A program made the position numbers and the translations under genes. The notes beneath the pieces were generated by a model. That model had not been told where the DNA came from and searched no databases. It saw only the letters and a list, made by a program, of their open reading frames with translations. Positions 521 to 18,969 of a DNA stretch of 64,000 nt are shown piece by piece; within the stretch, counting starts at the first letter, position 1; each line of letters opens with the position of its first letter. The stretch comes from a virus (taxonomy: Duplodnaviria > Heunggongvirae > Uroviricota > Caudoviricetes): the IMG/VR virus record IMGVR_UViG_3300005531_000248, positions 1-64,000 of that record; one strand, given 5' to 3'.

Positions 521-616
521 AGCCATTGAAGCATTGAGATTTTCGCGCTGCACTGGAGTAGCAGCGCGTCGGGAACCACGTCGTTGATTGGAGTGTCCGT
601 TCGATGAGTTTTTGCG

Positions 617-1912
617 ATGACTTTTGGAAGCTTATTTTCGGGGATCGGCGGCATCGACTTGGGGTTGGAGCGCGCAGGTCACCAATGCAGATGGCAGGTG
701 GAGATCGATGAATTCTGCCGCAAGGTCCTTCGGAAGCACTGGCCGGAAGTGCCGCGCTTTCGAGACATCACAAAAATCGAAGGGCGGGAGCTTGAACGGG
801 TCGATCTCATCTGCGGCGGATTCCCCTCTCAGGACCTCTCGCAAGCCGGAAAACGCGCAGGCATCGAAGGATCTCGCTCGGGCCTTTGGTTTGAGTTCGC
901 CCGCATTGTTGGGATTCTTCGACCCCGATACGTTCTTATTGAAAACGTCCCAGGTTTGCTTGATTACCGGGCAATGCCAAGAGTTGTCGGAGAACTGGCC
1001 CGACTCGGGTATGTGGGATCTTGGCTCAGCTTACGAGCTTCACAGTTCGGAGCGAGCCATCTCAGAAAACGAGTCTTCATCGTGGCCCACGACACGCGCC
1101 AGCTCGGGCGGCGGGAACCGTTCGGCATACCCGGGCGCGCCGTACCGACCTGCCCTGACGCAGATCGCGCAGAATTGGCCGACGCCTCGGGGCGAGGATG
1201 GCGAGAGTTGCGGGAACCATCCGAACTCGCAGGGCGATTCGCTGACGGGAGCGACGAAGTTGTGGAGAACGCCAGATGCGGCGGGCGATGGCGGCCCACG
1301 GAACCGGCATGGATCGATAGGCGATGGCCATCAGGTGACGATAGCGGAGCAAGCGGAGCACTGGGCGACTCCGAATGCGCACGACGGGACGGGAGCGCGG
1401 GGCAAGAACTTCGAACTGACGGATTGCCACTACAAGCCGCACGATCTGGTGAGCCAGACGGACTCCTGGAAGACACCGCATGGAATGAGCAACCGGGATC
1501 ACCGGGGCAAGGTGGGCGGCTGCGGCGGCGGGGAGTTTGCGAAGCAGGCGAACCAATGGCAGACGCCAGCGACGGATTCATTCAGGAGCCGGGGCGGGGA
1601 TCGCAAGGACGAGATGGGGCTGGATCAGCAGGCCAGGATGTTTCCAACACCATCGGCGAGAGATTACCGGACGCCCAACAAGAGCAGTTATCAGGACCGA
1701 GCAATTCAAAGAAGGGCGAACAGTTGAACAATTTTGTGGAGCATTCGCTCCCGGCCCCAATGACCCAAGATGGCCCGATATTATCCGAGTCCGATCTGAC
1801 CTCGCTCCGGCGCTTGAGCTTGGAGAACGCCGCAAACCGTCCGAAGCGCCGGCTCAACCCGAGATTTGTGGAATGGCTGATGGGCTTCCCGATTGGATGG
1901 ACCGAGCTATGA
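617..1912 (+). CDS. DNA cytosine-5 methyltransferase homolog with catalytic Cys replaced by Ser (PSQ instead of PCQ)
   Basis: Motif I FSGIGG; motif IV reads GGFPSQDLSQAGKR (expected GFPCQ); motif VI ENVPGLL; motif VIII-like QFGASHLRKRVFIVAH; C-terminal RFVEWLMGFPIGWT typical of phage Dcm-like MTases; long low-complexity insert in variable region. Confidence 0.75.
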   Translation: MTFGSLFSGIGGIDLGLERAGHQCRWQVEIDEFCRKVLRKHWPEVPRFRDITKIEGRELERVDLICGGFPSQDLSQAGKRAGIEGSRSGLWFEFARIVGILRPRYVLIENVPGLLDYRAMPRVVGELARLGYVGSWLSLRASQFGASHLRKRVFIVAHDTRQLGRREPFGIPGRAVPTCPDADRAELADASGRGWRELREPSELAGRFADGSDEVVENARCGGRWRPTEPAWIDRRWPSGDDSGASGALGDSECARRDGSAGQELRTDGLPLQAARSGEPDGLLEDTAWNEQPGSPGQGGRLRRRGVCEAGEPMADASDGFIQEPGRGSQGRDGAGSAGQDVSNTIGERLPDAQQEQLSGPSNSKKGEQLNNFVEHSLPAPMTQDGPILSESDLTSLRRLSLENAANRPKRRLNPRFVEWLMGFPIGWTEL

Positions 1913-2075
1913 GCAACCGGACTAAGCGGCTGTCGAGATTGGGAAATGCCGTTGTGCCGCAAGTAGCCGAATACATCGGACGAATGCTGATGCTCGTGGA
2001 CTCGGCGGGCGAAGACGCAAATCTTCCCCGTGCTGCAACTCCAGTGCAGCACGAAACAACGGAAAGGTCTTCAGT

Positions 2076-2258
2076 ATGAACTGGATCTTTGGAATATTAC
2101 TTTCCTGTGGTTCGTTGGGAGTGTTGATGTGGGCTTGGAGGAAACATGTGAACCGTGACTACTACTCTAAGCCTAAGAGAACCACACAACGATTGAGAGA
2201 AGTTATTGGGGCTGAAGCTTTAGAACCTGTGAATCATGCACGTATTGTTGAGAAATGA
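2076..2258 (+). CDS. small membrane protein, low-GC islet
   Basis: N-terminal TM helix (WIFGILLSCGSLGVLMWAW), basic tail; locally AT-rich codon usage unlike neighbours. Confidence 0.35.
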   Translation: MNWIFGILLSCGSLGVLMWAWRKHVNRDYYSKPKRTTQRLREVIGAEALEPVNHARIVEK

Positions 2259-2269
2259 ATGAGCATCTG

Positions 2270-2340
2270 GGTGATTTTATGTTGACGCTCTTCTCGGCGG
2301 TCTCGACGGTCAGACATGAGCCGCGTTCGCGCTCTGAAAG
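2270..2340 (-). repeat. RE-1 dispersed element, inverted orientation
   Basis: reverse complement reads cagagcgcgaacgcgg...ccgtcgagaccgccgagaagagcgtcaacataaaa. Confidence 0.7.
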
Positions 2341-2346
2341 GACTCT

Positions 2347-2958
2347 ATGAATATTTCAATTGGCAATATCCGCCTCTCCGGTGGTTCGCATCCGACCCGG
2401 GAACAAGGAACCTGCTTTATGGAGGCCGTGGCCTGGATCGCAAACGAGACGCACTCGGACCATCCAGAGTGTGTCTGTCCTGTATTCGGGGCGTTCATCC
2501 GGCGATTCCAGGACGACATTCCCGATAAAGAACGCCAGAAGCTGAAGCCTTATCTTGTGATGGCAATTGGAACGGCCGAAGACGGATTCGGAGAGCGCAG
2601 AGCGTGGATGTGCCTCGATTGGTACGTCCGCACCGTGCTGCCGATCTATCTCGAGTGCTTCGGTCACGTAAAGGAGGCGACCAATCTTAGATTGGTCGGA
2701 GAAATTTGTAGCGCCGAGACTTGGTCTGCGGCGAAGCCGAGTATTAGTCGTACCCTCGCCGGCCTCGCCGCCGCCCTCGACCTCGCCGCCCTCGCCGACC
2801 GCGCCACCCGGGCCGCACAACAAATCACGGAATCGGGATTTGCGCTGGTGGATCGAATGCTGCTGATCCAGTTGGAAAAACCCTCAGAGCGCGAACGCGA
2901 ACTGGCGCAACCTGTCGAGAAAGCCGAGGAGAGCGTTGACCACAAAGTAGGAGTCTAA
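2347..2958 (+). CDS. hypothetical protein; C-terminus runs into RE-1 copy
   Basis: ORF track; ATGA-type overlap with upstream leader ORF inside inverted RE-1; ends ...RERELAQPVEKAEESVDHKVGV. Confidence 0.5.
   Translation: MNISIGNIRLSGGSHPTREQGTCFMEAVAWIANETHSDHPECVCPVFGAFIRRFQDDIPDKERQKLKPYLVMAIGTAEDGFGERRAWMCLDWYVRTVLPIYLECFGHVKEATNLRLVGEICSAETWSAAKPSISRTLAGLAAALDLAALADRATRAAQQITESGFALVDRMLLIQLEKPSERERELAQPVEKAEESVDHKVGV
2885..2945 (+). repeat. RE-1 dispersed element (forward, subfamily A)
   Basis: cagagcgcgaacgcgaactggcgcaacctgtcgagaaagccgaggagagcgttgacc. Confidence 0.7.
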
Positions 2959-3127
2959 GAAAGCTCAAAAGCCCCAAAGAACCTTTATTGCGGAAAGTTC
3001 CCAGGGGCTTCGAGAAAGGAAATTGCTTTGCCTGAACCAAGAATACAACAAGTTGAAGAAGTAGAACAATACTCATCTTCCTTTACGTCGTCCTGCGGAT
3101 TGTAGATCAGTACTGAAGATGGGAATG

Positions 3128-3193
3128 ATTTTATGTCAACGCTTTCCTCAGCTATCTCGAAGGTCAGACATGAGCCGCGTGCGCGCTCTGAAG
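3128..3193 (-). repeat. RE-1 dispersed element, inverted orientation
   Basis: reverse complement: cccttcagagcgcgcacgcggctcatgtctgaccttcgagatagctgaggaaagcgttgacataaaa. Confidence 0.7.
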
Positions 3194-3411: not shown

Positions 3412-3540
3412 AAAGTTGAGGGCGCCGGAACCGGCGGAAACGGTCCAGGCGCCCAGGATGGAAAAACACTTAGTCATGGACAGAATACAGGAAAACGGTT
3501 CCCGAAAAAATGTCTCGATGCAGATCGAGGAGGCATCGCG

Positions 3541-3961: not shown

Positions 3962-4351
3962 GTGCCGGACGATGGAGGATCTGTGAATCAATGCCAATTC
4001 TGCGGGCAGCCTTCAACGCTACTTTGTGACGGGCGCATCTACGAGATAGCCTCGGGATCGTTTCGGGTGCCGCCGAATTTCGTCAACGGAAAGACGCGGT
4101 CCTGTGACGCGCATATCTGCCGCGCATGCGCGAAGAAAATTGGAGACGTACATCTCAACATGGGGCGGAAAGGCTGCCGTTGGGATACGCGCGATCTCTG
4201 CCCGGAATGTCAGAAGGTCCAGGATAAGCCGATACGCATTTCGTCCAATCTTCCGAGTGCGAACGATGCAACCCCTCAGCCCCAGAGCGCGAACGCGGAA
4301 AAGGCGCAGGCGACGAACGATCGCTCTCGAAGAGCGTCAACAACAAAATGA
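3962..4351 (+). CDS. Cys-rich zinc-binding-like protein; C-terminus in RE-1
   Basis: CQFCGQ...LLCDG...CDAHICRACAKK...CPECQK; ends PQPQSANAEKAQ... (RE-1 frame). Confidence 0.45.
   Translation: MPDDGGSVNQCQFCGQPSTLLCDGRIYEIASGSFRVPPNFVNGKTRSCDAHICRACAKKIGDVHLNMGRKGCRWDTRDLCPECQKVQDKPIRISSNLPSANDATPQPQSANAEKAQATNDRSRRASTTK
4272..4340 (+). repeat. RE-1 dispersed element (forward, subfamily B)
   Basis: cagagcgcgaacgcggaaaaggcgcaggcgacgaacgatcgctctcgaagagcgtcaacaacaaaATG. Confidence 0.65.
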
Positions 4352-4632
4352 CACCAAGCTTGCACGACTTAACCATCGGTGGAAGACAACGAAAGTTATC
4401 AGGACTGATTCGTGAACTTCAATTTCTAATTGAAGGCACTCCTGATGGTGGAGAAAAAGACTCTTTAGTAGAAGCAAATGAATGCTTAGCAGAAGCATTG
4501 AGCTTAATGGAATCAGCAAGAGAATTAGCTGGATCACTGACAACATCAGAACCATTGTCTTTCCCGCGCCAATCTGAGGTATTGGCGCAGACTGATTCGG
4601 CGTCTTCGTTGGGAGCTCCGTTCGATGAGTGA
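4348..4632 (+). CDS. hypothetical acidic protein, low-GC islet
   Basis: ORF track; start ATG immediately after RE-1 A-rich tail; 4380-4560 markedly AT-richer than surroundings. Confidence 0.35.
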   Translation: MTPSLHDLTIGGRQRKLSGLIRELQFLIEGTPDGGEKDSLVEANECLAEALSLMESARELAGSLTTSEPLSFPRQSEVLAQTDSASSLGAPFDE

Positions 4633-4963
4633 AACGAGCCAGATCCGCTCCGTCATGCGCACGGCTCCGAGTTTTGAAATAAGCGCTGAAGCAAGACTTA
4701 CGTGGTCGAACGGATCTTGCGGAAACCCCGGCTGTACCGATCCTGAGTGTTGTTGTTCGCTCTGCGGTAAGCCCATCGGCGTATCGGAAGACGATCCGCG
4801 CTGGGATCGACACGACGAGTATTGCGACGACTGCGATCTGTGCCGCGACCAGGTTCCTGTGATGCTGTTTCGGGGTGAAGGCAAAGCCATGCAGCAAGCC
4901 CAATTCCATATCAAATGCTTTGAGAAGATCGTTCGCATTAAACCCGGAGAGGTGATTCACTGA
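4625..4963 (+). CDS. Cys-rich hypothetical protein
   Basis: SCGNPGCTDPECCCSLCGKP...YCDDCDLCRD; ATGA overlap with next gene. Confidence 0.4.
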   Translation: MSETSQIRSVMRTAPSFEISAEARLTWSNGSCGNPGCTDPECCCSLCGKPIGVSEDDPRWDRHDEYCDDCDLCRDQVPVMLFRGEGKAMQQAQFHIKCFEKIVRIKPGEVIH

Positions 4964-5325
4964 TGGCCCGAAAAGCTACGACTAGCCTAACGATCTTCGA
5001 ACCGAACCAAAAGGAAAACTCGCAACCAAAGTTGAAGAGTTGGGCGCTGGTCGAGTTGTTCGGCCATCAAAGGATCGTAGGATATGTCTCGGAGCAGACC
5101 TTTGGGACGGGTGTCTTATTCCGTGTCGATGTGCCGGATCTGCTGAAGGACGGAAAGACGGTGCGGTCCGGTTTCACCCGCTATTTCGGGCTGAGCGCGA
5201 TCTACAGCATCACGCCGGTTGACGAAGCCACCGTGCGAGAACTACTGCCTTCCATCGACGGGACGCCGGCGGCACGACCGCTCTCACTCGGAAGCTATGG
5301 CGGCTACGAAAGAAGCGACTACTGA
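4963..5325 (+). CDS. hypothetical protein
   Basis: ORF track; start overlaps stop of previous (TGATGG). Confidence 0.45.
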   Translation: MARKATTSLTIFEPNQKENSQPKLKSWALVELFGHQRIVGYVSEQTFGTGVLFRVDVPDLLKDGKTVRSGFTRYFGLSAIYSITPVDEATVRELLPSIDGTPAARPLSLGSYGGYERSDY

Positions 5326-5406
5326 TGACGCACGCTCAACGACGCAGTTCCGAACGCGCTGAAACCTCAGTTCAGCGCGAGGCCACGGAAAGGACTGATG
5401 GGTAAA

Positions 5407-5577
5407 TGGACTGGTTTCTATTAGGATTCTTAGCTGGTATTGGTCTCATCTGGGGAATTCAAGGACTGAAGTACTTGGGCAAGCACAAAGAAGTACCTGA
5501 GATCTTTTCTCAACAACGTGATCTTGAACTGGATGAATTACGAAGGATGGCTGGATTAACAACGGAGAAGAAATGAT
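5407..5577 (+). CDS. small membrane protein (56 aa), low-GC islet
   Basis: MDWFLLGFLAGIGLIWGIQGL... by-eye translation; AT-rich like 2076..2258 and with a similar small-TM N-terminus. Confidence 0.3.
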
Positions 5578-5607
5578 GATTGAACTGTTTGGGCTGTGTT
5601 CTGTTTC

Positions 5608-5630
5608 GTGCCGCACTGGAGTAGCGGCAC
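5608..5630 (+). promoter_or_regulatory. HP-C leader hairpin (conserved loop ACUGGAGUA)
   Basis: GTGCCGC-actggagta-GCGGCAC, ~38 nt upstream of ATG 5668. Confidence 0.5.
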
Positions 5631-5667
5631 GGAGAAAGATGTCGTCGCTCGCTTGGGAGGTCGGTTC

Positions 5668-6045
5668 ATGAGCCAACACACGCCGGGGCCGTGGAGAGCG
5701 GAAAAGGTAGAGATGCCGCAGACGTGGGACTACTGGGAAATAAGCAGCGACTCTGAAATAGTTGCTGAAATAGACAACACTGACCGAACCACCGAGGTGC
5801 AAGAGGCCGACGCGCGGCTGGTCGCCGCTGCGCCAGAATTGCTTTCATCGCTGCGCGTAATCTTCGACCTTTCGAGGAACGGTTCATCCAACGTCGTAGA
5901 TGTGGACAAGCGCCTGCTCTCCATTGCTTCGGAGTGCCGACAAGCCATCACCAAGGCCGAGGGAGCCATTCAGAGCGCGAACGAGCAACTGGCGCAACCC
6001 GTCGAGACCGTTGAGGGGAGCGTTGCCATAAAAACAGATCCTTGA
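5668..6045 (+). CDS. hypothetical protein; C-terminus in RE-1
   Basis: ORF track 5596..6045; likely start ATGAGC at 5668 downstream of leader hairpin; ends QSANEQLAQPVETVEGSVAIKTDP. Confidence 0.45.
   Translation: MSQHTPGPWRAEKVEMPQTWDYWEISSDSEIVAEIDNTDRTTEVQEADARLVAAAPELLSSLRVIFDLSRNGSSNVVDVDKRLLSIASECRQAITKAEGAIQSANEQLAQPVETVEGSVAIKTDP
5971..6033 (+). repeat. RE-1 dispersed element (forward, subfamily A, consensus copy)
   Basis: cagagcgcgaacgagcaactggcgcaacccgtcgagaccgttgaggggagcgttgccataaaaa. Confidence 0.8.
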
Positions 6046-6374
6046 GATTACGAGTTTTGCTCAAATAACTGAGCAGAAGCTGAGCCGGGCAGCAACCCCG
6101 GTATATAGTTTTCACCGACAAGGGACTATCAAATGCCTGCTTTGAAACGAGGATTCGGAGCCTTCTCCTTAATGCGCCAAATTGCGGTGGATCTTCGGAT
6201 CTTCGTTTCAGCGGGGTCAGAAAGGAGAGCGCGCAGTTTAGATCAGCAGAGCACATGGGGGAACGTTCTATTCAACGTTACGGAACAGACAAGCAGCGAA
6301 AACTTGTCTGGATTACCAAGAGTAGGACGTCTTCCCTTAGTAATGAAAAAGAATTTAGGCCTTTGCGTCGTTTC

Positions 6375-6397
6375 GCACTGCACTGGAGTTGCAGTGC
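6375..6397 (+). promoter_or_regulatory. HP-C leader hairpin
   Basis: GCACTGC-actggagtt-GCAGTGC; stem differs from other copies with compensating changes. Confidence 0.5.
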
Positions 6398-6419
6398 GTA
6401 GAAGCAGCGCGGCTTCGAC

Positions 6420-6737
6420 TTGGGCGGTCCGGTCATGAGTCTCCGACAAGGCCCGAACGATTTGCTTAAGGCTCTTACGAGTGCGCAGACGGTGTTGCTG
6501 ATGATAGCGAATTGTCATCGCTGCGATCATTGTAGAAGGCGGGCGCTGGATTGTTTAGGGTACCAAGTGAATCCGGTGCTTGATCAAAAGCCGAACTTCG
6601 TAACCCCTAAGAAGCGCAAGTACAAACGCCGGGCACGGAGCGCCGCAAAGGAAACCATTCAGAGCGCGAACGAGCAAATCTCGCAACCCGTCGAGACCGT
6701 TGAGGGGAGCGTTGCCAACCAAAGGACCCCAAAGTGA
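6420..6737 (+). CDS. hypothetical protein; C-terminus in RE-1
   Basis: ORF track (alternative start ATGAGT at 6435); ends QSANEQISQPVETVEGSVANQRTPK. Confidence 0.4.
   Translation: MGGPVMSLRQGPNDLLKALTSAQTVLLMIANCHRCDHCRRRALDCLGYQVNPVLDQKPNFVTPKKRKYKRRARSAAKETIQSANEQISQPVETVEGSVANQRTPK
6660..6724 (+). repeat. RE-1 dispersed element (forward, subfamily A)
   Basis: near-identical to copy at 5971. Confidence 0.8.
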
Positions 6738-6982: not shown

Positions 6983-8781
6983 GCGCCGCACCCATGCCAG
7001 CAAAAGCTCTCCATCTCGGGCATGATTTCGACCTGCCGGTAGACGCGGTAACGCAGAAGTTCGCCTTTCTCGGCCGTACCGGTTCAGGCAAAACCTACGC
7101 TGCTACCAAACTGGCGGAAGAGATGTTCTCGGCGGGCGCGCAAATCATCGCGCTCGACCCGGTGGGCGTCTGGTATGGACTGAGGCTTTCAAAAAACGGC
7201 AAGGACAAAGGCCTGGAGATCCCGGTGTTCGGCGGATTGCATGGCGACATACCCCTGGAGCCGGGTGCGGGAGCGCTCATCGCGGACCTGCTCATAGATC
7301 GGACTATTTCGGCAATCGTGGATGTCAGCCAAATGATCCAGGCCGAACAGCAGAGATTCGCCTACGCATTTGCGACCCGGCTGTTTGAACGGCGCAAACG
7401 CACTCCGGGAGCCATGATGCTGTTCCTCGAAGAGTGCCAGGAATTCGTGCCGCAGAATCCGATGAAGGGCGACGAACACATGCTGCACTCCTTCAACCGG
7501 CTGTGTAAGATTGGGCGCAACTTTGGCATCGGCGTGTCGCTGCTCTCGCAAAGGCCCCAGGAGATTAACAAGAAAGTTCTGAACCTAACCGAGTGCATGT
7601 TCGCGTTTCAGATGACCGGCCCGCACGAGCGAAAAACGGTGAAGGAATGGTTTTCCTACGTCGGTGATGACGCTGGGCTGGTGGACCGGTTACCGAAATT
7701 GCGGGTGGGAAGTGCCTACGTCTCCAGCCCTCAGTGGCTTCGCTATTCCGGCGAAGTAGCCATTGCGGAGAAACGAACGTTTAACGCCTCCAGCACTCCG
7801 AAGGTTGGAGCGGCACCCGCGCAGGTGAAACCACTTGATCCAATCGACCTTGAAAAGATCCGCTCCGAGATGGCCGAGACCATCGAGCGGGCCAAGGCCG
7901 ACGATCCCAGGGAACTCCGAAAGCAGATTGCGGAGCTGAAGAAGCAGATCACGCATCCCCCGGCCAGTAATATACCGGATAAGGTATTACCCGCGGATCG
8001 GCTCCAGAAGGAGTTCGAGAAGGGCGTCCAGGCCGAGCGCCGCAGAATTCGCGAGGAACTGGTACCCCAACTTCAGGACATCACGAACTTACACGCGCGC
8101 ATTGTGCGGGCCTTCGAAGGAAATCCACTGGCCGCGATCGGAATGAGCCTGGACAAGATTAGTGAGTTGCTCAACAAGCTGGCACCCATCCCAGACCCGA
8201 ATTCCCCGCCCCCGCCTCGCACCGTCCCGCAAGCAGCGCGCGCCGTTCCCGCGCCGGCGCGCGCAGCACCCCGGAAGGAAGTCGACCCGGACTCCAAGAT
8301 CACCGGCCCCGAGCAGCGGATACTGGACGCGATCGCATGGATGGAATCCATAGGCATCGAAGCCCCCGAGCAGACTGCCGTAGCATTCCTGGCTGGTTAC
8401 ACCTACGGCGGGGGTGCGTTCAATAACCCGCGGGGCGCATTGCGCACAAAGGAACTAGTCGAATACGTCGGAGGCGACCGGATCCGCTTGACGGACGCCG
8501 GGCGCGCAATTGCAACGTTTCCAGACAGTGCTCTCACTGCCAATGAGCTTCAGATGAAAGTGCTGGAGCGCCTGCCGGGGCCCGAGCGCAAAATTCTTTC
8601 GGTGCTGATCGAGGCTTACCCGAATTCGATGTCGAACGAGGAATGCGCTTCTGCCGCTGGTTACGCGCCCAACGGGGGTGCCTACAACAATCCGCGCGGA
8701 CGTCTGCGGACGTTGGGATTGATCGACTACCCAGATCGCGGGCACGTGCGCGCCCTGCCTCTGCTGTTTCTGGAGCGCTGA
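6979..8781 (+). CDS. HerA/FtsK-like AAA ATPase (DUF87-type) with C-terminal tandem ~70-aa winged-helix-like repeats
   Basis: Walker A FLGRTGSGKT; IIALDPVGVWY; Walker B MMLFLEECQEF; GVSLLSQRPQEI; C-terminal duplicated module AGY(T/A)xxGGAxNNPRGxLRTxxL(V/I)xY. ORF track 6859..8781 trimmed to ATG 6979 (ATGA overlap). Confidence 0.65.
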   Translation: MSAAPMPAKALHLGHDFDLPVDAVTQKFAFLGRTGSGKTYAATKLAEEMFSAGAQIIALDPVGVWYGLRLSKNGKDKGLEIPVFGGLHGDIPLEPGAGALIADLLIDRTISAIVDVSQMIQAEQQRFAYAFATRLFERRKRTPGAMMLFLEECQEFVPQNPMKGDEHMLHSFNRLCKIGRNFGIGVSLLSQRPQEINKKVLNLTECMFAFQMTGPHERKTVKEWFSYVGDDAGLVDRLPKLRVGSAYVSSPQWLRYSGEVAIAEKRTFNASSTPKVGAAPAQVKPLDPIDLEKIRSEMAETIERAKADDPRELRKQIAELKKQITHPPASNIPDKVLPADRLQKEFEKGVQAERRRIREELVPQLQDITNLHARIVRAFEGNPLAAIGMSLDKISELLNKLAPIPDPNSPPPPRTVPQAARAVPAPARAAPRKEVDPDSKITGPEQRILDAIAWMESIGIEAPEQTAVAFLAGYTYGGGAFNNPRGALRTKELVEYVGGDRIRLTDAGRAIATFPDSALTANELQMKVLERLPGPERKILSVLIEAYPNSMSNEECASAAGYAPNGGAYNNPRGRLRTLGLIDYPDRGHVRALPLLFLER

Positions 8782-8782
8782 C

Positions 8783-8998
8783 ATGATCCAAGAACACCAG
8801 TGGATAGAGAGCGAACCATTTCTGTGGAGTTGTAAAAAGTGCGGTGATGGTCCGTACCACGGTATGAGACCGCTTTCCAAGTGTCCAGGAAGACCAACGT
8901 TCGGAAGGCTTCAGAGCGCGAACGCGGGAAAGTTGCAACCGACGAACGAAAGCCGTGAAGAGCGTCGAAGCATAAGTAACCAACTGCGAGTTGAGTAA
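8783..8998 (+). CDS. small zinc-ribbon protein; C-terminus in RE-1
   Basis: WSCKKCGDGPYHG...SKCPGRP; ends GRLQSANAGKLQP. Confidence 0.35.
   Translation: MIQEHQWIESEPFLWSCKKCGDGPYHGMRPLSKCPGRPTFGRLQSANAGKLQPTNESREERRSISNQLRVE
8912..8975 (+). repeat. RE-1 dispersed element (forward, subfamily B)
   Basis: cagagcgcgaacgcgggaaagttgcaaccgacgaacgaaagccgtgaagagcgtcgaagcataag. Confidence 0.6.
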
Positions 8999-9443: not shown

Positions 9444-9515
9444 TTACAAGCTTTCGACCATTCTATTTCTCGCGCTGGACTGAGGTTCCAGCGCGTAGAG
9501 ATTGCGCGTCTTCGC

Positions 9516-10863: not shown

Positions 10864-13631
10864 GTACCGCTGCTGTTTCTGTCCAGAAATCGATGTTAAC
10901 GGGAGCTATCTGCCCGGAGTGCAAGCTACATCGGGGCCATCGCGCGAATTGCTCCAAAGGCCGGATAAACGAGTCTAGCGATCGCAGTCTCGAAGCCTAC
11001 CGTGAATTTCTGAAGCGCAAGGTATTGCTCTCGGACGAGTACGGGTTTGAAGTGGCCGATTCCGAGATCCACGCATCGCTGAAGCCTCATCAACGCATTG
11101 CAGTTCAGTGGGCCGTCCGTGGCGGCCGTCGGGCATTATTCGAATCCTTCGGTCTGGGAAAAACACGTCAGCAGCTTGAAATTCTGCGCCTCATCGTTCA
11201 GCGTGTGGGCGGCCGCGGCTTGATAGTGGCGCCGCTGGGTATACGACAGGAATTCCAGGCCGAAGCTGCGGAGCTCGGAACCGATCTGAAGTTCATCAAG
11301 TCCGATGCGGAAATATCGGGCGACGGACTGTACGCCACCAATTACGAGAGTGTCCGGGAAGGCAAACTTACAGCGTCCCGTTTCGTCGCGGCATCGCTCG
11401 ACGAGGCGGCCATATTGTCCGGCTTCGGCGGCGTGAAGACCTTCCGTGAGTTTATGCGGCAGTTCGACGCCGTGAAATACCGCTTTGTGGCCACGGCCAC
11501 GCCTGACCCGAACGAGTACATCGAACTTCTGGCCTATGCTGCCTTCCTGGGAGTAATGGAAGTCAGCCAAGCCAAAACCCGGTTTTTCAAACGGGACTCC
11601 ACCAAAGCCGATCATCTAACGCTGCACCCTCACAAAGAGCGGGAATTCTGGCTATGGGTAGCGTCCTGGGCTTTGTTCCTCGACAAGCCATCCGACTTCG
11701 GACCTGAGTTCTCAGACGAGGGCTATTCCCTGCCACCGCTCGATATACAGCTCCACGAGTTGCCAGTGGATCATGCTGCAGCTCTGCCGGATCGCGAAGG
11801 CCAGGGCAGACTGTACCGGGAATCGGCGCAAGGTCTGAGTGAGGCCGCACGCGAGAAGCGCGAGACCTTGGATGCCAGAATCGCGGAAATGAAGCGCATC
11901 GTCGACCTGGAGCCGGAGGAACACTTCATCCTTTGGCATGACCTCGAAGACGAGCGCCGCTCGATCAAGAAACTACTTCCCCAAGCCGCGGACGTATTCG
12001 GAATGCAGCGGACCTCGAAAGGCGGCTCCGAGAAGCTGGAGCAGTCCTTGATGGATTTCGCACAGGGCAAAGTTCAATACCTTGCCGCCAAACCATCCAT
12101 GTTTGGCGCCGGTTGCAATTTCCAAAAGCACTGCGCGCGTGCCATCTTCTGCGGGATCAATTACTCGTTTCGGCACTTCATCCAGGCGGTACACCGAATC
12201 TATCGCTTCTTGCAAAACAGAACGGTCACCATTCACCTGATCTACGCCGAAAGCGAGAAGAGCGTTTTATTGGCACTCCTCGAAAAATGGGAACGCTACA
12301 AACAGCAGTGCGCCAAGATGCGCGAGATTATCGCGGAGTTCGGACTGGCCCGAGAAGCCCTGAAAAGCGCCATGACACGCTCGCTCGGAATAACGCGCAT
12401 CGAGCGCGGCAGTGAGCATTATCTAATGGTCAACAACGATTGCGTGGAAGAGTTGCATCGTATGGAGTCCGGCAGTATCGATCTGGTTGTAACGTCCCCG
12501 CCGTTCTCGCACATGTACGAGTACTCGCCCAACTACGCCGACTTCGGCCATTCAGATTCGAACGAGCACTTTTGGGAGCAGATGGACTTCATGATTCCCC
12601 AGTTGCTGCGCGTTCTCCGGCCAGGCCGCACGGCCGCTATCCACGTCAAGGACCGCGTAGTGCCGGCTGGAATTTCGGGGCTAGGTTTTCAGACGATTTA
12701 TCCGTTCCACGCCGATTGCATCGCTCATTTCGTCAAAGCAGGTTTCGGCTTCATCGGCATGAAGACCATCGTCACGGATGTGGTGCGCGAGAATAACCAG
12801 ACCTATCGCCTCGGGTGGTCCGAGCAATGCAAGGACGGCACCAAGATGGGCTACGGGCTGCCGGAATACTTGCTGTTCTTCCGTAAGCCTCCAACAGATA
12901 CCTCCAATGGATATGGCGATAAGCCGGTTGTGAAGAGCAAACCGCTATGCGTGTCGGAGGCCGGCGAGATCGTTTCGTTTGACCGTGATCTTCCAATTCA
13001 GCCGGGAAGCGGGTACTCGCGATCACGCTGGCAGATCGACGCCCACGGATTCATGCGCTCGTCCGGCAATCGACCGCTTCGTCCAGAAGACCTCAACGGA
13101 CTGACCCACGAGCAGATTTTCAAGCTGTTCCGCAAGTACTCATCTGAAGAGATCTACGACTTCGAGCAGCACGTGAGGCTGGGCGAGGAGCTGGAGCAAA
13201 AAGGCACTCTGCCGGTCACGTTCATGCTCTTACAGCCGCAGTCCTGGCATCCGGACGTATGGACCGACGTAACGCGGATGCGCACGCTCAACAGTTCCCA
13301 GGCCTCGAAAGGCCGGGAGATGCATCTATGCGCGATGCAGTTCGATGTGTGCGATCGAGTCATCGCTCAGCTTTCGATGCCCGGAGAAGTGGTGCTAGAC
13401 CCCTTCGCGGGAATCGGAACCGTTCCATCGCGCGCGGTGATGCAGGGCCGATTCGGCCTGGGAATTGAACTGGCGCCGGGGTATTTCGCGGATGCGGTGA
13501 GCTATTGCAGAGCGGCCGAGGAGAAACGCGCGGCGCCCACACTGTTCGATCTGACGGAACTAGATTCCTCTGAGCGCGAACGCGGCCTGCCTCAACCCGT
13601 CGAGACCGCCGAGGGGAGCGTCAACATATAA
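10860..13631 (+). CDS. SNF2-family helicase fused to beta-class N6A/N4C DNA methyltransferase; C-terminus in RE-1
   Basis: N-terminal HQRIAVQWAV...FGLGKTRQQL...LIVAPLGIRQEFQ (SNF2_N), DEAAIL box, helicase-C GKVQYLAAKPSMFGAGCNFQ; C-terminal DLVVTSPPF (motif IV) then LDPFAGIGTV (motif I); ends SERERGLPQPVETAEGSVNI. Confidence 0.8.
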   Translation: MSTAAVSVQKSMLTGAICPECKLHRGHRANCSKGRINESSDRSLEAYREFLKRKVLLSDEYGFEVADSEIHASLKPHQRIAVQWAVRGGRRALFESFGLGKTRQQLEILRLIVQRVGGRGLIVAPLGIRQEFQAEAAELGTDLKFIKSDAEISGDGLYATNYESVREGKLTASRFVAASLDEAAILSGFGGVKTFREFMRQFDAVKYRFVATATPDPNEYIELLAYAAFLGVMEVSQAKTRFFKRDSTKADHLTLHPHKEREFWLWVASWALFLDKPSDFGPEFSDEGYSLPPLDIQLHELPVDHAAALPDREGQGRLYRESAQGLSEAAREKRETLDARIAEMKRIVDLEPEEHFILWHDLEDERRSIKKLLPQAADVFGMQRTSKGGSEKLEQSLMDFAQGKVQYLAAKPSMFGAGCNFQKHCARAIFCGINYSFRHFIQAVHRIYRFLQNRTVTIHLIYAESEKSVLLALLEKWERYKQQCAKMREIIAEFGLAREALKSAMTRSLGITRIERGSEHYLMVNNDCVEELHRMESGSIDLVVTSPPFSHMYEYSPNYADFGHSDSNEHFWEQMDFMIPQLLRVLRPGRTAAIHVKDRVVPAGISGLGFQTIYPFHADCIAHFVKAGFGFIGMKTIVTDVVRENNQTYRLGWSEQCKDGTKMGYGLPEYLLFFRKPPTDTSNGYGDKPVVKSKPLCVSEAGEIVSFDRDLPIQPGSGYSRSRWQIDAHGFMRSSGNRPLRPEDLNGLTHEQIFKLFRKYSSEEIYDFEQHVRLGEELEQKGTLPVTFMLLQPQSWHPDVWTDVTRMRTLNSSQASKGREMHLCAMQFDVCDRVIAQLSMPGEVVLDPFAGIGTVPSRAVMQGRFGLGIELAPGYFADAVSYCRAAEEKRAAPTLFDLTELDSSERERGLPQPVETAEGSVNI
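13571..13630 (+). repeat. RE-1 dispersed element (forward, subfamily A)
   Basis: gagcgcgaacgcggcctgcctcaacccgtcgagaccgccgaggggagcgtcaacatataa. Confidence 0.75.
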
Positions 13632-13639
13632 GAACCCTC

Positions 13640-14125: not shown

Positions 14126-14707
14126 GTGTCGTGCGCCCTTAATCTGTCACTTCAAGTCACACTTTGTCTACAAGGTTACGCCGTGGAAATACCTGAGCGC
14201 AACTTGCTTATAGAACGGTATTTACCGAAAATTCGGGGTATCGCACGCCAGTTATCGTACCGGCTTCCAAGTTCTTTCGAGGTTGAGGATCTGGTCCAGA
14301 TAGCTGTGGTGGCACTGATTGAGGCTTCAGAACGGTATAAAGAAGATACCGGAAGCTCTTGGTGGTCGTTTGTAAGAGACAGATGCTATGGGAGTATGAT
14401 TAATTTCGTTGATGGGGAGATAAGACGGGTCAAGGGCGGCGAAACCAACGGTTTCTCCTCCCTTACAAACCCGCCTCTTCCCTCAGAAGCGCCCGACCGT
14501 TCGCCCAATCCGGAGTGCCAGGCCATCACCCACGAACAGGCCCGGCTGCTGATCCGACGGATCGGCCGGCTGCCCAAGAAACACCGGGCGTACCTGCGGC
14601 TCAAGGTCGATGGCCGGACACATTCTGAAATTGCACGCAGGCTGGGTGTGAGCCTGCCGCGGATCAGCCAGATCAAAACCAAGGTCAGAGAGGAACTGGT
14701 CGCGTGA
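14126..14707 (+). CDS. sigma-70 family RNA polymerase sigma factor (group 3/FliA-like)
   Basis: region 2 DLVQIAVVALIEASERYKEDTGSSWWSFVRDRCYGSM; region 4 LPKKHRAYLRLKVDGRTHSEIARRLGVSLPRISQIKTKV. Confidence 0.7.
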   Translation: MSCALNLSLQVTLCLQGYAVEIPERNLLIERYLPKIRGIARQLSYRLPSSFEVEDLVQIAVVALIEASERYKEDTGSSWWSFVRDRCYGSMINFVDGEIRRVKGGETNGFSSLTNPPLPSEAPDRSPNPECQAITHEQARLLIRRIGRLPKKHRAYLRLKVDGRTHSEIARRLGVSLPRISQIKTKVREELVA

Positions 14708-14827: not shown

Positions 14828-14890
14828 CAGAGCGCGAACGAGCAACTGGCGCAACCCGTCGAGAGCGGCGAGAAGAGCGTTGCCATAAAA
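14828..14890 (+). repeat. RE-1 dispersed element (forward, subfamily A)
   Basis: cagagcgcgaacgagcaactggcgcaacccgtcgagagcggcgagaagagcgttgccataaaa. Confidence 0.8.
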
Positions 14891-14959
14891 TCACTTGATC
14901 AAAAATCCAACGATTCCTCCCTTAATTTCTAAGACTCTTTTTTGGATCTTAGTCAGTGA

Positions 14960-15364: not shown

Positions 15365-15399
15365 TGAACCATGCATTTGTATGGTCAGAGACTATGCTT

Positions 15400-15468
15400 T
15401 TTTGTTGGCAACGCTTTCCTCGGCGGTCTCGACGGGGTGAGGCTGGTCGCGTGCGCGCTCTGAAGGGC
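15400..15468 (-). repeat. RE-1 dispersed element, inverted orientation
   Basis: reverse complement: cccttcagagcgcgcacgcgaccagcctcaccccgtcgagaccgccgaggaaagcgttgccaacaaaaaa. Confidence 0.7.
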
Positions 15469-17194: not shown

Positions 17195-17553
17195 TGCCGA
17201 CTCATGGGTTTCCACGTTACCGTTGCCACAAAGAGGTTTCGGCCGTGAAGATCGCCGAAGTTCGCGTGGAATCGCTGCCGGTGTGGAAAGGTGCCACGTG
17301 CAAAGGTTCGTATGCGCTGGGCTCCGCTTGCGGCAAGTGCGAGCGTTGCGCCTGGGAGCGTGAGCACGGATCTGACGCCCTCGGTGCGCTCATCGTGCCG
17401 GAAGATCCTCAAATCTTCCCATTTCGCGTGACAGGGAAGTATTACCGCAAACACCAGCCTCAGCCGGGCGGGTACTTCGTGGTGTACGAGGACGGCTACG
17501 AGAGTTTTTCTCCGGCCAAAGCATTTGAAGAAGGATATACGCGCATCGAATGA
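17194..17553 (+). CDS. hypothetical protein
   Basis: ORF track; ATGA overlaps. Confidence 0.4.
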   Translation: MPTHGFPRYRCHKEVSAVKIAEVRVESLPVWKGATCKGSYALGSACGKCERCAWEREHGSDALGALIVPEDPQIFPFRVTGKYYRKHQPQPGGYFVVYEDGYESFSPAKAFEEGYTRIE

Positions 17554-18017
17554 ATCGCTCCAATGAAAGTCGCAGGAAAATAACACGGTTAGCTTTTGTG
17601 CTTGCGATCTTCAGCGCAGGCGCAATTCCGCTAAGCGCACAGGAGGAGACCGGACGCTGGCCGGGGGGCTGGATCGACTACGCCACCTGTGACCAGATTG
17701 AAGGTTGGGCGGCGGATGCACACCACCCGGAGCGACAGTTTGATGTTGAGATTTTGGAACACGGGAAGAAGATTGGCGAAGCCACGGCCAACCTGTACCG
17801 CCTCGATCTCGAACACAACCTCGACTTCGGTAACGGAAGCTACGGGTTTAGAGCCGCTACTCCGGCACGTCTCAAGGACGGCAGACGGCACGATATTGCT
17901 GTTCGAATTAAGGGTACACACGCGCTGCTCTACGGCGTAGACCGTAGCAGCACCCGGGTAATCGGCTACGAGGTCATAAGCAAAGGCTCCTGGACGATGC
18001 GGGTGAAGTGCCGATGA
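17550..18017 (+). CDS. secreted hypothetical protein
   Basis: signal peptide ...LAFVLAIFSAGAIPLSAQEE. Confidence 0.45.
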   Translation: MNRSNESRRKITRLAFVLAIFSAGAIPLSAQEETGRWPGGWIDYATCDQIEGWAADAHHPERQFDVEILEHGKKIGEATANLYRLDLEHNLDFGNGSYGFRAATPARLKDGRRHDIAVRIKGTHALLYGVDRSSTRVIGYEVISKGSWTMRVKCR

Positions 18018-18131
18018 GCACCCGCACCTGTACGCACACCTTTGCGATTCTGACGGTGAGCCGCGAGGCCTTCGCCGAGATCTGGGCGAAGCTCGCTGCC
18101 GCAAATTACGAGCACTGTCTCCACAAAGAGG

Positions 18132-18167
18132 GCAGTGACGAGGAGAGCGTTGCCAACAAAAAACACC
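18132..18167 (+). repeat. RE-1 partial copy (3' box only)
   Basis: gacgaggagagcgttgccaacaaaaaacacc ahead of GTG start 18184. Confidence 0.5.
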
Positions 18168-18183
18168 CCGGTTAATAATTACA

Positions 18184-18756
18184 GTGCTTGATCCTTTATC
18201 CATACACTCCCGCATCCTCTCAGGCGACCAAACAGCCGAAGAAGAGCTGATCGCCTTTCTTCGAAACAAGTACGCGAGAGAGTATTTAAGGAGCCTGGGA
18301 CCGTTAGGAGAAGACTACCTGCAAGACCTGTGCATGACGGTAATCGAAGGCATACGCAAAAACTCCGTTGAGCACCCCCAGTTTCTGATCACGTACTGCC
18401 AGTGGAAAGCGCACAGCATCCGTCTGCACGCCATCCGCAAAGCCTCGCAGGCATCGAAAAAGCTCATTCCGATAACAGAGGCCAGACACTTCGAGGACCC
18501 GCATCCGGGCGCCGATGTGACCTTGGTCGAGGCTGAACGCGCCCGCATTGTTCTGGGCTTGATCCATACGTTAGATTCGGTGAGCCGCGAAATCGTGTTG
18601 CGATCCTATTTTGAAAAACAGAAGGCCGAAGAGATCCAGCGCGACATGAACCTGACGCCCAACGAATACCGGGGCCGCAAGCAACGCGCTGTAGAGCGGT
18701 TGAAGGCAGAGTACAGGCAACGGTTTGGGGAACGCGAAGAGCTGCTTGCGGCGTAG
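18184..18756 (+). CDS. putative sigma-70 family (ECF-like) factor, region 4 HTH
   Basis: REIVLRSYFEKQKAEEIQRDMNLTPNEYRGRKQRAVERLK matches sigma region 4 pattern; region 2 assignment weaker. Confidence 0.45.
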   Translation: MLDPLSIHSRILSGDQTAEEELIAFLRNKYAREYLRSLGPLGEDYLQDLCMTVIEGIRKNSVEHPQFLITYCQWKAHSIRLHAIRKASQASKKLIPITEARHFEDPHPGADVTLVEAERARIVLGLIHTLDSVSREIVLRSYFEKQKAEEIQRDMNLTPNEYRGRKQRAVERLKAEYRQRFGEREELLAA

Positions 18757-18946
18757 AATGATCTCCTCTACTATAGCTATCGCGTGTAGAGTCAAAAAGA
18801 TCCGATACAAAACCGGACTAATCGGTACTAATCCGTACTTTTCCGGAGTAGAGTTTGTGGATCATAGACCAGTGGGATGAGCCAGGCTTTCGGGAAAAAG
18901 ATCCAGTAGTCAGCCGACAGTAAAATAATCCAACGGTCTCTTTCTC

Positions 18947-18969
18947 GCGCTGCCCTGGCGTAGCAGCGC
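18947..18969 (+). promoter_or_regulatory. HP-C hairpin, variant loop
   Basis: GCGCTGC-cctggcgta-GCAGCGC; same stem as copy at 544. Confidence 0.4.

Follow-up and report, generated by a model that had tools for sequence, protein, structure and literature searches.

The window, that is, the whole 64,000-nucleotide stretch analysed here, comes from a prophage of an uncultured soil bacterium. It contains ten intergenic copies of a hairpin termed HP-C, of which the + strand carries six and the - strand four, and all are confined to the first 29 kb; a scan of the window found no copy in the structural module. The four hairpins of the original prediction are all present (544-568, 5607-5631, 6374-6398 and 18946-18970), two of them (5607-5631 and 6374-6398) with 8-bp stems, one pair longer than described at 5607. 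The six additional copies lie at 2053..2029 (-), 4565-4589 (+), 5379..5355 (-), 9471-9495 (+), 19708..19684 (-) and 29116..29092 (-).

The copy at 544..568 (+) (CGCGCTGC-ACTGGAGTA-GCAGCGCG; 49.0 bits) separates a gene at 1-375 from a C5 methylase gene (617-1912) and folds at -15.1 kcal/mol as RNA and -10.5 kcal/mol as DNA. Paired with it in inverted orientation is the copy at 2029..2053 (-) (CGTGCTGC-ACTGGAGTT-GCAGCACG; 52.2 bits), found 3' of the + strand methylase gene. The loop-variant copy at 4565..4589 (+) (CGCGCCAA-TCTGAGGTA-TTGGCGCA, with a terminal C-A mismatch; 31.5 bits), 35 nt 5' of the ATGAGT of gene 4625-4963, is likewise in inverted pairing with that at 5355..5379 (-) (CGCGCTGA-ACTGAGGTT-TCAGCGCG; 41.3 bits), which sits between the + strand genes 4963-5325 and 5668-6045. 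The 8-bp hairpins at 5607..5631 (+) (CGTGCCGC-ACTGGAGTA-GCGGCACG; 51.1 bits) and 6374..6398 (+) (CGCACTGC-ACTGGAGTT-GCAGTGCG; 49.9 bits) are 36 nt 5' of, respectively, the ATGAGC of gene 5668-6045 (Pfam Phage_P22_Y8K6) and the ATGAGT of ORF 6435-6737, which is absent from the source's gene calls. At 9471..9495 (+), 27 nt 3' of the stop codon of an HNH gene, lies a further copy (CGCGCTGG-ACTGAGGTT-CCAGCGCG; 45.5 bits), and the gene that follows has its real start at 9543 rather than at the ATGAGT box. A variant with 7 pairs at 18946..18970 (+) (CGCGCTGC-CCTGGCGTA-GCAGCGCC; 40.1 bits) forms the left end of a 1.9-kb stretch without a called gene; its inverted partner is the variant at 19684..19708 (-) (ATGGCTGC-ACTGGATTT-GCAGCCAT; 20.4 bits, folding z -3.4), in which a 9-bp stem is possible and the GTTT flank is absent. 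The remaining copy, 29092..29116 (-) (CGCGCTGA-TCTGAGGTA-TCAGCGCG; 36.6 bits), is 37 nt 5' of the + strand portal gene; the leader that belongs to this copy closes with ATGAGCTAA.

HP-C makes up the core of a module that spans about 48 nt and lies between genes. The 5' flank, (CAT)YCTYCGTYT, is followed by a GC-rich stem of 8 bp, strictly Watson-Crick and free in sequence provided that pairing is kept, by the fixed loop N-CTGRRGT-N and by the 3' flank TTGGG..TC. The gtttcg box reported before each hairpin corresponds to the conserved 5' flank, (C)GTYT, extended by the first stem pair (CG). Past the 544 copy runs a conserved spacer (569..608, +), with a CGTC(T/G)TCG box about 10-18 nt beyond the hairpin and then CCGKTC(R)ATGAG at +34 to +36. 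This arrangement recurs at 4590-4629, 5632-5672, 6399-6439, 9496-9535 and 29091..29053 (-), and the spacer is degenerate past the hairpins at 2028 (-) and 5354 (-). The ATGAG box, 34-36 nt past the hairpin, is a plausible gene start in three of six cases (4625, 5668 and 6435). At 604 it opens a 35-codon ORF in a different frame from the methylase, which starts at 617; the ORF opened by the box at 9531 has only 6 codons, and at 29057 (- strand) the sequence reads ATGAGCTAA. Neither orientation shows a U-tract 3' of the hairpin, and no conserved -35/-10 elements were found in the flanks.

By itself, the 7-mer CTGGAGT is not enriched in the window (8 observed versus 5.6 expected). The hairpin context, however, is far beyond chance: half of these occurrences (4/8) are flanked by 8 of 8 possible pairs, against only 0.09% of random positions (0.5% for 7 of 8). 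Among related loci, 61 of 82 CTGGAGT sites have 7-8 of 8 pairs, compared with 0.6% at random positions. Related copies were collected with a filter requiring at least 7 pairs; since the distribution is also bimodal when sites are selected by the loop only, the filter did not create the signal. A pattern that left the 3' arm unconstrained returned 10 true copies (7-8 of 8 pairs, in three contigs) and 27 chance hits (at most 3 pairs). In the covariation set of 90 non-redundant copies, 98.1% of stem cells are paired, two-sided changes occur at all 8 stem pairs (187 cells) and every stem position has turned over. None of 500 shuffles reached the observed covariation score, and when the stem partners are slid, no more than 28-48% of cells pair. 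Selection acts on the stem to keep it paired and on the palindrome to fold. These figures bear out the earlier claim of stem covariation around a fixed loop, and a plain double-stranded DNA operator with conserved half-sites would not account for perfect covariation at free stem positions.

Loop positions C2, T3, G4 and T8 are invariant across the 90 copies, which come from phages with non-homologous flanking genes. Internal G-U pairs occupy one of 630 cells, and transition mismatches show no mRNA-sense bias (9 versus 6, p=0.6). As RNA, the hairpins reach a stable -12 to -16 kcal/mol, and neither strand folds better than the other, whether as RNA or as DNA. With its 8-bp stem and 9-nt loop, HP-C makes, thermodynamically, a poor cruciform.

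Further copies, about 90 non-redundant ones, occur in related phage contigs from soil metagenomes. No true copy was found in 50,697 GenBank phage records or in 185,579 reference genomes; in the latter the pattern matched once, at a site without a stem. Nor does the host flank (L052 1-4333) contain a copy, and a 1.1-kb search of Rfam gave no match even at E<=10. HP-C is phage-specific, within a clade of uncultured soil phages that are temperate and P22-like. About 45 proteins of the window were scanned against Pfam and PHROG, with no RNA polymerase, HUH enzyme or RAYT among the matches; no binding protein, nuclease or transposase came to light.

In the window, three copies that lie between called + strand genes (2053, 5379 and 29116) point the opposite way. 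In related phages, 33 copies run forward and 26 in reverse when judged against neighbouring ORFs of at least 100 aa, these calls resting on ORF length with Pfam support for only some of the genes; the loop spectrum is alike in the two sets. Class B copies are mostly reverse, and one stands inverted beside a GH25 endolysin gene on the minus strand. Of 74 transitions, 52 switch orientation (p=3e-4), and inverted pairs enclose single small genes. Copies adjoin stop codons as often as start codons. The upstream stop lies 12-20 nt from the hairpin (seen in 24 forward copies); the downstream start is often 9-11 nt away in 44-kb phages and about 35 nt away in this window. In about 20% of copies, of both orientations, the distance from hairpin edge to start is fixed at 9-11 nt. 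Subclass A1 of the relatives stands 11 nt ahead of ATG, and in one related orthologous group the hairpin follows, at about 30 nt, a perfect TATAAT located on the same strand.

Of the ends of homology blocks between related phages, 27% fall within 30 nt of a hairpin, versus 6% at random positions. A small-gene cassette enclosed by hairpins in L017 (10173-10387) is missing from L043. One boundary of this indel lies about 45 nt past the hairpin, within the neighbouring gene, and the event is therefore a mosaic replacement rather than a precise transposition. Identical 25-mers (stem TGTGCCGA, loop TCTGGAGTA) are present at unrelated sites of the same genome (L017 2167 and 10387), which suggests concerted evolution; the orthologue of the 10387 copy in L045 and L049 carries CGTGCCGT.

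The proposal of an RNA element in 5' leaders holds in so far as several copies lie just 5' of genes, but not for a family that occurs in both orientations and adjoins stops and starts equally. Its explicit form is a sense-strand RNA operator whose ACUGGAGUA loop an RNA-binding protein of phage or host would read, binding or cleaving the hairpin, after the models of lambda N/boxB, a coat-protein operator, CsrA or RegB-like cleavage of GGAG, with reverse copies decayed or otherwise used. Six of the ten window copies are forward to their genes, with the conserved 35-nt spacer, and the A1 and TATAAT-associated copies are suitably placed; GGAG lies inside the loop, and GGA recurs in the downstream purine tract. 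However, a protein reading ACUGGAGUA in mRNA would miss the reverse copies because their RNA loop is UACUCCAGU, and these copies, which include most of class B, are as common as the forward ones, with equally conserved loops. Together with loop variants that lack GGA or GGAG (GGGG, GAGG, GGCG), the rarity of G-U pairs, the unbiased mismatches, ten copies per genome rather than one per operon and the blank Rfam search, this makes such an operator distinctly unlikely. A role for RNA structure only, as punctuation of a polycistronic transcript in either orientation, is a better candidate, though still an unlikely one. The hairpin would attenuate or terminate transcription without a U-tract, block 3' exonucleases, mark a site of processing or insulate the next translation start, and the loop would owe its conservation to descent, to gene conversion between copies or to folding kinetics rather than to recognition by a factor. 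Orientation independence, hairpin stability and the identical 25-mers of L017 agree with it, and the spacing from stop and start codons and the TATAAT-proximal copy suit a purely RNA-level role equally well. Yet unconstrained loops should diverge, and four loop bases have stayed invariant in 90 copies while the stems turned over. G-U pairs, normally tolerated in RNA stems, are not tolerated here. The U-tract is lacking in both orientations, and there is usually too little space for a promoter before the next start, so that efficient termination would silence the downstream genes.

Two DNA-level alternatives fare worse. The 25-bp unit, with its inverted arms and asymmetric 9-bp core, might be the crossover site of a phage recombinase, making the enclosed genes invertible or exchangeable cassettes. 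The window does encode a small serine recombinase (Resolvase, PF00239; 21737-22315) with a Fis-like HTH_8 protein alongside; the inverted pairs around single genes, an alternation that would avoid deletions, the mosaic breakpoints near hairpins and a few copies resembling hybrids of two stem types (e.g. TGCGCTGC...GCAGCACG in L051) point the same way. It is nevertheless very improbable: arms that vary between sites yet are perfectly self-complementary are the opposite of protein-bound half-sites, and crossover in the core between different stems would mismatch the arms, whereas 98% of cells pair. Moreover, the unit has no central dinucleotide, no inverted segment was seen among the related loci, the one further copy of this phage is oriented alike and the fetched parts of related phages contain no resolvase homologue. 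Least probable of all is an N4-type promoter, an extruded DNA hairpin read by an RNA polymerase or sigma-like factor, with starts a few nt downstream and near-leaderless mRNAs. As in N4 early promoters, where recognition involves bases of the loop and its surroundings (-11 purine, -10G, -8G), the variable stem need only pair (PMC4496689). The fixed edge-to-start distance in a fifth of copies, the lack of enrichment of consensus sigma-70-type promoters in the early region (4 found versus 8.2 expected) and three phage-encoded sigma-like proteins are also in its favour. Against it, about 45% of copies oppose their flanking genes, copies lie within co-directional operons and the hairpin-to-start distance depends on lineage (11 versus 35 nt). 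Neither a virion nor a single-subunit RNA polymerase was detected, and the largest ORF has 930 aa; an 8-bp stem with a 9-nt loop is unlike the N4 hairpin (stems up to 7 bp; PMC4496689); and the phage ECF sigma has a better candidate promoter elsewhere, GAAC-N16-CGTCGA.

Several known systems come close. Bacterial REP/BIME palindromes are mobilised by RAYT transposases, which recognise them on DNA hairpins. Like HP-C, REPs are 20-40 nt palindromes, strictly intergenic, often placed just after stops inside operons, present in many copies per genome and in both orientations with a tendency to alternate. In REPs, which are chromosomal and host-wide, the stem and a 5' GTAG are kept and the loop varies; HP-C is the opposite, with the loop kept and the stem variable, is limited to one phage clade, and no RAYT/Y1 transposase was seen here. 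Lambda-type nut sites also combine a short conserved box with a fixed-loop hairpin in early transcripts, a likeness to be set in the context of a temperate phage with P22-like structural genes. BoxB, however, has a 5-bp stem and a 5-nt loop and occurs once per early operon in the sense orientation only, and the boxA consensus is not present with HP-C. The N4 hairpin has a loop much smaller than 9 nt and needs a 3,500-aa virion RNA polymerase; no N4-like one was found in this phage. In N4 early promoters, recognition rests on loop bases and on a few of those in the stem, the other stem positions being free to vary if they pair, so that the two share a conservation pattern of fixed read bases and a freely pairing stem (PMC4496689). 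N4 has three copies in one orientation with stems of up to 7 bp, HP-C 10-25 copies in both orientations with an 8-bp stem and a 9-nt loop. The PeSLs (promoter-early stem-loops) of T4-type phages consist of a sigma-70 promoter and a terminator in the direction of transcription (PMC2839356, PMC4122927). They resemble HP-C as short conserved intergenic stem-loop cassettes, repeated many times in hyperplastic accessory regions, that flank small ORFans and coincide with insertion, deletion or replacement boundaries between related phages (PMC2839356, PMC4122927). Unlike PeSLs, HP-C has no conserved -35/-10 and no U-tract, occurs in both orientations and keeps its loop while the stem covaries. The SAS of Cluster K mycobacteriophages are 13-bp asymmetric sites, nearly always in one orientation, and in the ESAS the arms are conserved and the spacer varies (PMC3203893). 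These too are clade-specific phage repeats just 5' of the starts of some non-homologous genes, missing from host genomes, and the ESAS contain inverted repeats as HP-C does (PMC3203893). In HP-C the arms covary, the loop spacer is fixed and both orientations occur.

In logic, HP-C resembles REP elements, T4 PeSLs and N4 promoter hairpins while belonging to none of them. The palindrome recurs at the boundaries of many early and accessory genes and in either orientation, which makes it a new family of gene-boundary hairpin and not simply a 5'-leader RNA switch. The reading that we prefer, with a probability of about 0.4, is that of an orientation-independent boundary element that must fold, whose loop is read on DNA or on either strand by a putative factor and which also punctuates the transcript. 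The phage clade would place the module, as a rigid unit in either orientation, between genes of the early and accessory half of the genome. The loop is most likely read by a factor, since its DNA sequence is preserved regardless of which strand is transcribed and G-U pairing is avoided; this would be a trans-acting and probably phage-specified factor, acting on DNA folded into a hairpin or cruciform, or on either strand. Recognition would follow the logic of the N4 promoter hairpins, loop bases being read and the stem merely pairing. The RNA form, which is unavoidable, would act as intercistronic punctuation, shielding the 3' end of the upstream cistron as a barrier and setting a fixed structure right before the next start. 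The outcome for these phages may be insulation or a roadblock, cassette exchange or transcription control.

All four hairpins of the original prediction (544-568, 5608-5630, 6375-6397 and 18947-18969) are present where they had been placed, two of them with stems one pair longer than described. They belong to HP-C, a repeated intergenic hairpin with an 8-bp stem and a 9-nt loop, N-CTGRRGT-N. The heptamer CTGGAGT is not by itself enriched in the window (8 occurrences versus 5.6 expected). Its hairpin context is far from chance, since 4 of these 8 sites are flanked by 8/8 complementary bases, a degree of pairing found at 0.09% of random positions in the same sequences (0.5% for 7/8 pairs). Relaxed pattern and structure searches of the window added six copies, two on the plus strand (4565-4589 and 9471-9495) and four on the minus strand (2053..2029, 5379..5355, 19708..19684 and 29116..29092); the loop variant CTGAGGT is found in four of the six. 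When a covariance model of the family was run on the window, its hits at 20-52 bits were these ten copies and no others, partly by construction as they sat in its seed. The next-best matches, at 54142-54199 (18.6 bits) and 63537-63567 (14.2 bits), lack the motif and are not copies. Each of the ten sits either between two called genes or within a 1.9-kb stretch that holds none, and the structural module past 29.1 kb is free of them. Upstream of the first copy by 34 nt, and after the gene at 1-375, a terminator-like hairpin occupies 485-510 (GGGCGGT-GTTTTGGAG-ACCGCCC, then TGTTTAGTT); its loop exceeds 8 nt, so that our terminator scan missed it.

A scan of IMG/VR with a pattern that fixed the 5' flank and loop and left the 3' arm free returned 37 loci. 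Ten matches, on three contigs, form 7-8 of the 8 stem pairs; the other 27 form at most 3 and are chance matches. A stricter pattern gave 13 loci on eight soil-metagenome contigs, most of about 44 kb (Ga0210407_10000502 is one of this size), and its lone match in 185,579 reference genomes (locus L038, a Parahaliea MAG) has no stem and is not a copy. Scanning all related loci for a stem enclosing a NCTGNNNTN loop yielded about 93 copies once redundancy was removed. The 44-kb phages have roughly one HP-C per 1-1.5 kb in their hairpin-rich half, the best-covered of these relatives having been examined over about 28 kb. The genes flanking HP-C in relatives are almost never homologous to those flanking it in the window, indicating that the hairpin is much better conserved than its neighbours. 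No similar sequence was found among 50,697 GenBank phage records. Rfam gave no match to window positions 1-30,000 at E ≤ 1, except for an unrelated weak radC, nor to positions 5340-6460 at E ≤ 10. Loci with related portal genes (L053-L059, 46% identity), which span structural genes only, carry no copies.

The pairing of HP-C is clearly under selection. Among 90 non-redundant copies, gathered with a filter of at least 7 pairs, 98.1% of stem cells are paired and all eight pairs have changed on both sides (187 cells), which bears out the compensatory changes reported originally; these counts, like the covariance model, rest on copies picked partly for pairing. The covariation score was reached by none of 500 shuffles, and pairing falls to 28-48% when the 3' partner is slid. 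Selection on the loop alone gives a bimodal distribution anyway, with 7-8 pairs at 61 of 82 sites. Internal G-U is limited to 1 pair in 630 stem cells, and transition mismatches show no bias toward mRNA-sense G-U (9 versus 6, p=0.6). Since the pairing is selected, a plain duplex operator with conserved half-sites is excluded. The loop, initially taken to be invariant, is so at C2, T3, G4 and T8, while positions 5-7 vary among purines (GAG, GGG, AGG). In 58% of copies position 1 is complementary to position 9, and a pair there would shorten the loop to 7 nt. This fixed loop, on a free but strictly Watson-Crick stem and in both orientations, is unusual among phage intergenic repeats and suggests that a folded nucleic acid is recognised rather than a linear site. 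For isolated hairpins the predicted folding energies are -12 to -16 kcal/mol in RNA form and -9 to -11 kcal/mol in DNA form, with the two strands folding equally well.

Conservation extends only from about -12 to +11. The flanks fall into class A, (CAT)YCTYCGTYT-hairpin-TTGGG..TC, and class B, GGCTATC-GGCGGGGN...NCCCCGCC-CAAGA. In the window lineage the hairpin is followed by an additional 35-nt spacer, which contains CGTCTTCG and, after it, CCGKTC(R)ATGAG. The proposed ATGAG start opens a plausible gene at three of six window copies; the remaining three open ORFs of 35, 6 and 2 codons. Shine-Dalgarno sequences are absent from most confident genes window-wide, coat and portal included, and the few present (AAGGAG) are spaced 8-10 nt from the start; the GGAGG-TCG-ATG tract beside HP-C in relatives therefore stands too near its ATG for an ordinary Shine-Dalgarno sequence. 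Beside hairpins of the 44-kb phages, another motif, CTATAGGGGCTAT(AGGGGCT), is recurrent, for example at 7600-7680 of the related locus L017 and in class B 5' flanks (L017 9555-9572). Read in reverse, it contributes the hexamer TATAGT, 9 nt past the hairpin of class B copies.

Because a codon-usage gene caller was unreliable on the early genes, orientation in the window was read from the source's gene calls and Pfam-supported genes. Three copies (2053, 5379 and 29116) are inverted between plus-strand genes so backed: a methylase gene and its neighbour, the genes at 4963-5325 and 5668-6045, and the gene at 28873-29052 and the portal gene, respectively. In L017 an inverted class B copy adjoins a minus-strand GH25 endolysin gene. 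When flanking ORFs (100 aa or longer) are taken as the reference, 33 copies run forward and 26 in reverse, with equal loop spectra; gene orientation in the related loci was judged mostly from ORF length. The sense-strand 5'-leader RNA first envisaged would suit those copies that precede genes; the two orientations with their shared loop spectrum speak against it, as do the unbiased transition mismatches, the inconstant ATGAG start and the spacing to stop and start codons described next.

Successive copies tend to alternate in orientation (52 of 74 pairs, p=3e-4; 41 of 59 when orthologous loci are left out). A stop codon lies 12-20 nt before 24 forward copies, and a start codon lies 9-11 nt after the hairpin, in either orientation, in about a fifth of copies; the HP-C module thus takes up the space from stop to start. 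The two members of a convergent pair typically stand 200-600 bp from each other, with a single small gene between them. One cassette of this kind, at L017 10173-10387, which carries a small membrane protein gene beside the endolysin gene, is absent from the otherwise collinear locus L043. Where a homology block between related phages ends, a hairpin is within 30 nt in 27% of cases, compared with 6% at random positions, although the endpoints are mutually non-independent and intergenic DNA is a likely breakpoint regardless.

The window corresponds to about 17.2-81.2 kb of the 160-kb metagenome contig ERZ27279670 k141_774551, a location that makes it a prophage. An identical 13.9-kb piece, collinear, is present in a second sample (SRR5579883 contig). 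The structural genes are of P22 type (portal, coat, scaffold, Hc3 and ejection proteins). The phage is very distant from cultured phages, against which megablast gave zero matches and the portal protein reaches at most 37% identity. A Cpn10/GroES-like gene (35148-35411, from the gene-call table) lies amid the head genes and a histidine phosphatase gene (His_Phos_1, 53812-54525) amid the tail and ejection genes. Products of the left 20 kb include two DNA methylases, a HerA-like ATPase, an HNH endonuclease, a minus-strand XRE repressor, an ECF-type sigma factor (14126-14707) and a second sigma-like protein. Three adjacent genes (21737-23287) directly precede the terminase genes and encode a small serine recombinase (Resolvase PF00239, 192 aa, N-terminal YARVST motif; 21737-22315), a Fis-like HTH_8 protein (22413-22805) and a third sigma-like protein (Sigma70_r2; 22802-23287). 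In the relatives, two consensus-like promoters stand back to back next to one HP-C copy (L017 11435-11500 and L043 8123-8210). One of them, TTGACA-N17-GATACT, is directed at a D12 adenine methylase gene, and the other strand has a perfect TATAAT about 30 nt upstream of the hairpin, which is thus plausibly within a 5' leader. These phages, then, do use sigma-70-type promoters.

A second repeat, of about 65 nt (CAGAGCGCGAAC-N16-CGTCGAGACCGCCGAGGAGAGCGTCAAC-A-rich), is about 80% conserved with the related loci L051, L043 and L045. It occurs at 2339..2275(-), 2884-2935, 4283-4342, 5979-6045, 6658-6723, 8896-8964, 13569-13632, 14836-14900, 15464..15397(-), 47743-47785 and 56875-56927. Its GAAC-N16-CGTC resembles a promoter for ECF sigma factors, one of which the phage encodes. 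Several copies coincide with the extreme 3' end of called ORFs, and four HP-C copies are found 200-600 nt downstream of one on the same strand. The 1.9-kb stretch without a called gene (18757-20648) is nearly symmetric: on the left, HP-C (+) at 18946, direct repeats TCCCAAATAT and the perfect 22-bp palindrome GTCGCGTGAGGCCTCACGCGAC (19037-19058); in the middle, a possible Cys-rich ORF on the minus strand (19066-19452); on the right, the palindrome GTCGCGTGAGGCCTCACGCGAC again (19576-19597), direct repeats CCACCCATCCT and HP-C (-) at 19708. The stretch may serve as an origin or a regulatory switch, or be an invertible segment.

We infer, with a probability of about 0.4, that HP-C works as a boundary element irrespective of its orientation, with a loop that is recognised on DNA or on either strand. 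Equal conservation of the loop in both orientations, the near absence of G-U, a loop direction tied rigidly to the asymmetric flanks and the restriction to the phage would suit a reader of folded DNA, either as a hairpin on one or the other strand or as a cruciform, which would look the same after rotation. The same observations are hard to reconcile with a protein that binds one RNA loop, and the sense-strand RNA operator first proposed, despite the copies that precede genes, is quite doubtful. RNA punctuation by structure alone, in which either strand could fold, is unlikely in view of the fixed loop. The promoter hairpins of phage N4 are described as working by folded-DNA recognition of this type: bases in and next to the loop are read, and at variable stem positions pairing is enough (PMC4496689). 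HP-C likewise has conserved loop bases and stem bases that are free while pairing holds. However, N4 hairpins have a stem of up to 7 bp, a small loop and a GC-rich heptamer centred at -11, unlike the 8-bp stem and 9-nt loop (7 if positions 1 and 9 pair) of HP-C, and they are co-directional with their genes, a rule broken by the reverse copies and by those at 2053, 5379 and 29116. As to an N4-type virion polymerase, the largest window ORF has 930 aa, several large virion proteins match nothing, and no RNA polymerase family was matched among the large window proteins scanned. We give an N4-like hairpin promoter very little credence. A recombinase site is very improbable too. A recombinase gene is indeed present, but hix/res-type sites have conserved protein-bound half-sites around a 2-bp crossover and form hybrid sites on recombination, whereas the arms of HP-C differ between copies yet remain self-complementary, in a unit of odd length (25 bp). 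No inversions were seen among related loci, no invertible segment is evident, and the SRR5579883 copy of the phage is collinear.

Other known elements share single features with HP-C. Like T4 PeSLs, it clusters in accessory-gene regions, flanks ORFans and sits at indel or replacement boundaries. Unlike PeSLs, which combine a strong sigma-70-like promoter with a terminator stem-loop, it has no conserved positions beyond -12/+11 and no U-tract; promoter-like and terminator-like sites in window 1-20 kb are at or below chance (terminator loops of up to 8 nt scanned). REP/BIME elements are likewise intergenic palindromes in both orientations that tend to alternate, but they have a conserved stem, a 5' GTAG, a variable loop and a RAYT, whereas in HP-C the stem covaries, the loop is fixed and GTAG is absent; no Y1 transposase was matched among the proteins scanned or in the gene-call tables. 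Nor does HP-C agree with lambda nut sites (5-bp stem, 5-nt loop, boxA, one sense site per operon). In its association with start codons it is reminiscent of SAS/ESAS, repeats of unknown function in Cluster K mycobacteriophages (PMC3203893). However, these are asymmetric 13-mers, 3-8 bp before starts and in one orientation, while HP-C occurs in both and only about 20% of copies stand at the fixed 9-11 nt. As HP-C lacks defining features of each of these families, we file HP-C under the general kind of phage intergenic boundary stem-loops.

Several further readings were discarded. For a sigma-54 promoter, the GG/GC spacing in CTGGAGTAGCAGC is, by our own inspection, off by one and unconserved. 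An ECF or sigma-70 promoter across HP-C would lack a conserved -35 or -10 in the flanks; GGAGTW and CGTC are 18-20 nt apart in copies of the window type, and the 44-kb phages lack CGTC. A CsrA/RsmA site is contradicted by the common loop variants GGGG and GAGG, which lack GGA, and anti-SD/SD sequestering by the flanks by predicted basal pairing that is inconsistent between copies. A MITE with precise ends does not fit the L017/L043 indel, which has no target duplication and has one boundary inside the neighbouring gene. Co-evolving kissing loops left no signal: 34 of 52 adjacent opposite pairs share a loop variant versus 216 of 351 among all pairs, and adjacent opposite copies show no excess sharing of loop variants or stems over random pairs.

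A more ambitious extension, which we regard as rather unlikely, is genome-wide recognition of DNA-hairpin loops in temperate P22-like phages. A phage protein would read CTGRRGT on extruded hairpins at 10-25 gene boundaries, much as the N4 polymerase does at three promoters, and might serve transcription control or gene-cassette movement. The same low weight goes to an RNA-level version. The 7-nt loops of forward and reverse copies are exact complements that tend to alternate along operons; by kissing, they would close each cistron into an RNA loop.

Even on a modest reading, HP-C marks gene-cassette boundaries and would help to annotate and compare these phages. It is a clean, deeply covarying motif of about 100 copies, confined to one clade of uncultured soil phages and absent from Rfam, cultured phages and reference genomes. 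If the reader of its loop were found, it might prove to be a DNA- or RNA-binding protein of a new, hairpin-specific type, and might reveal a novel means of insulating or exchanging phage gene cassettes.
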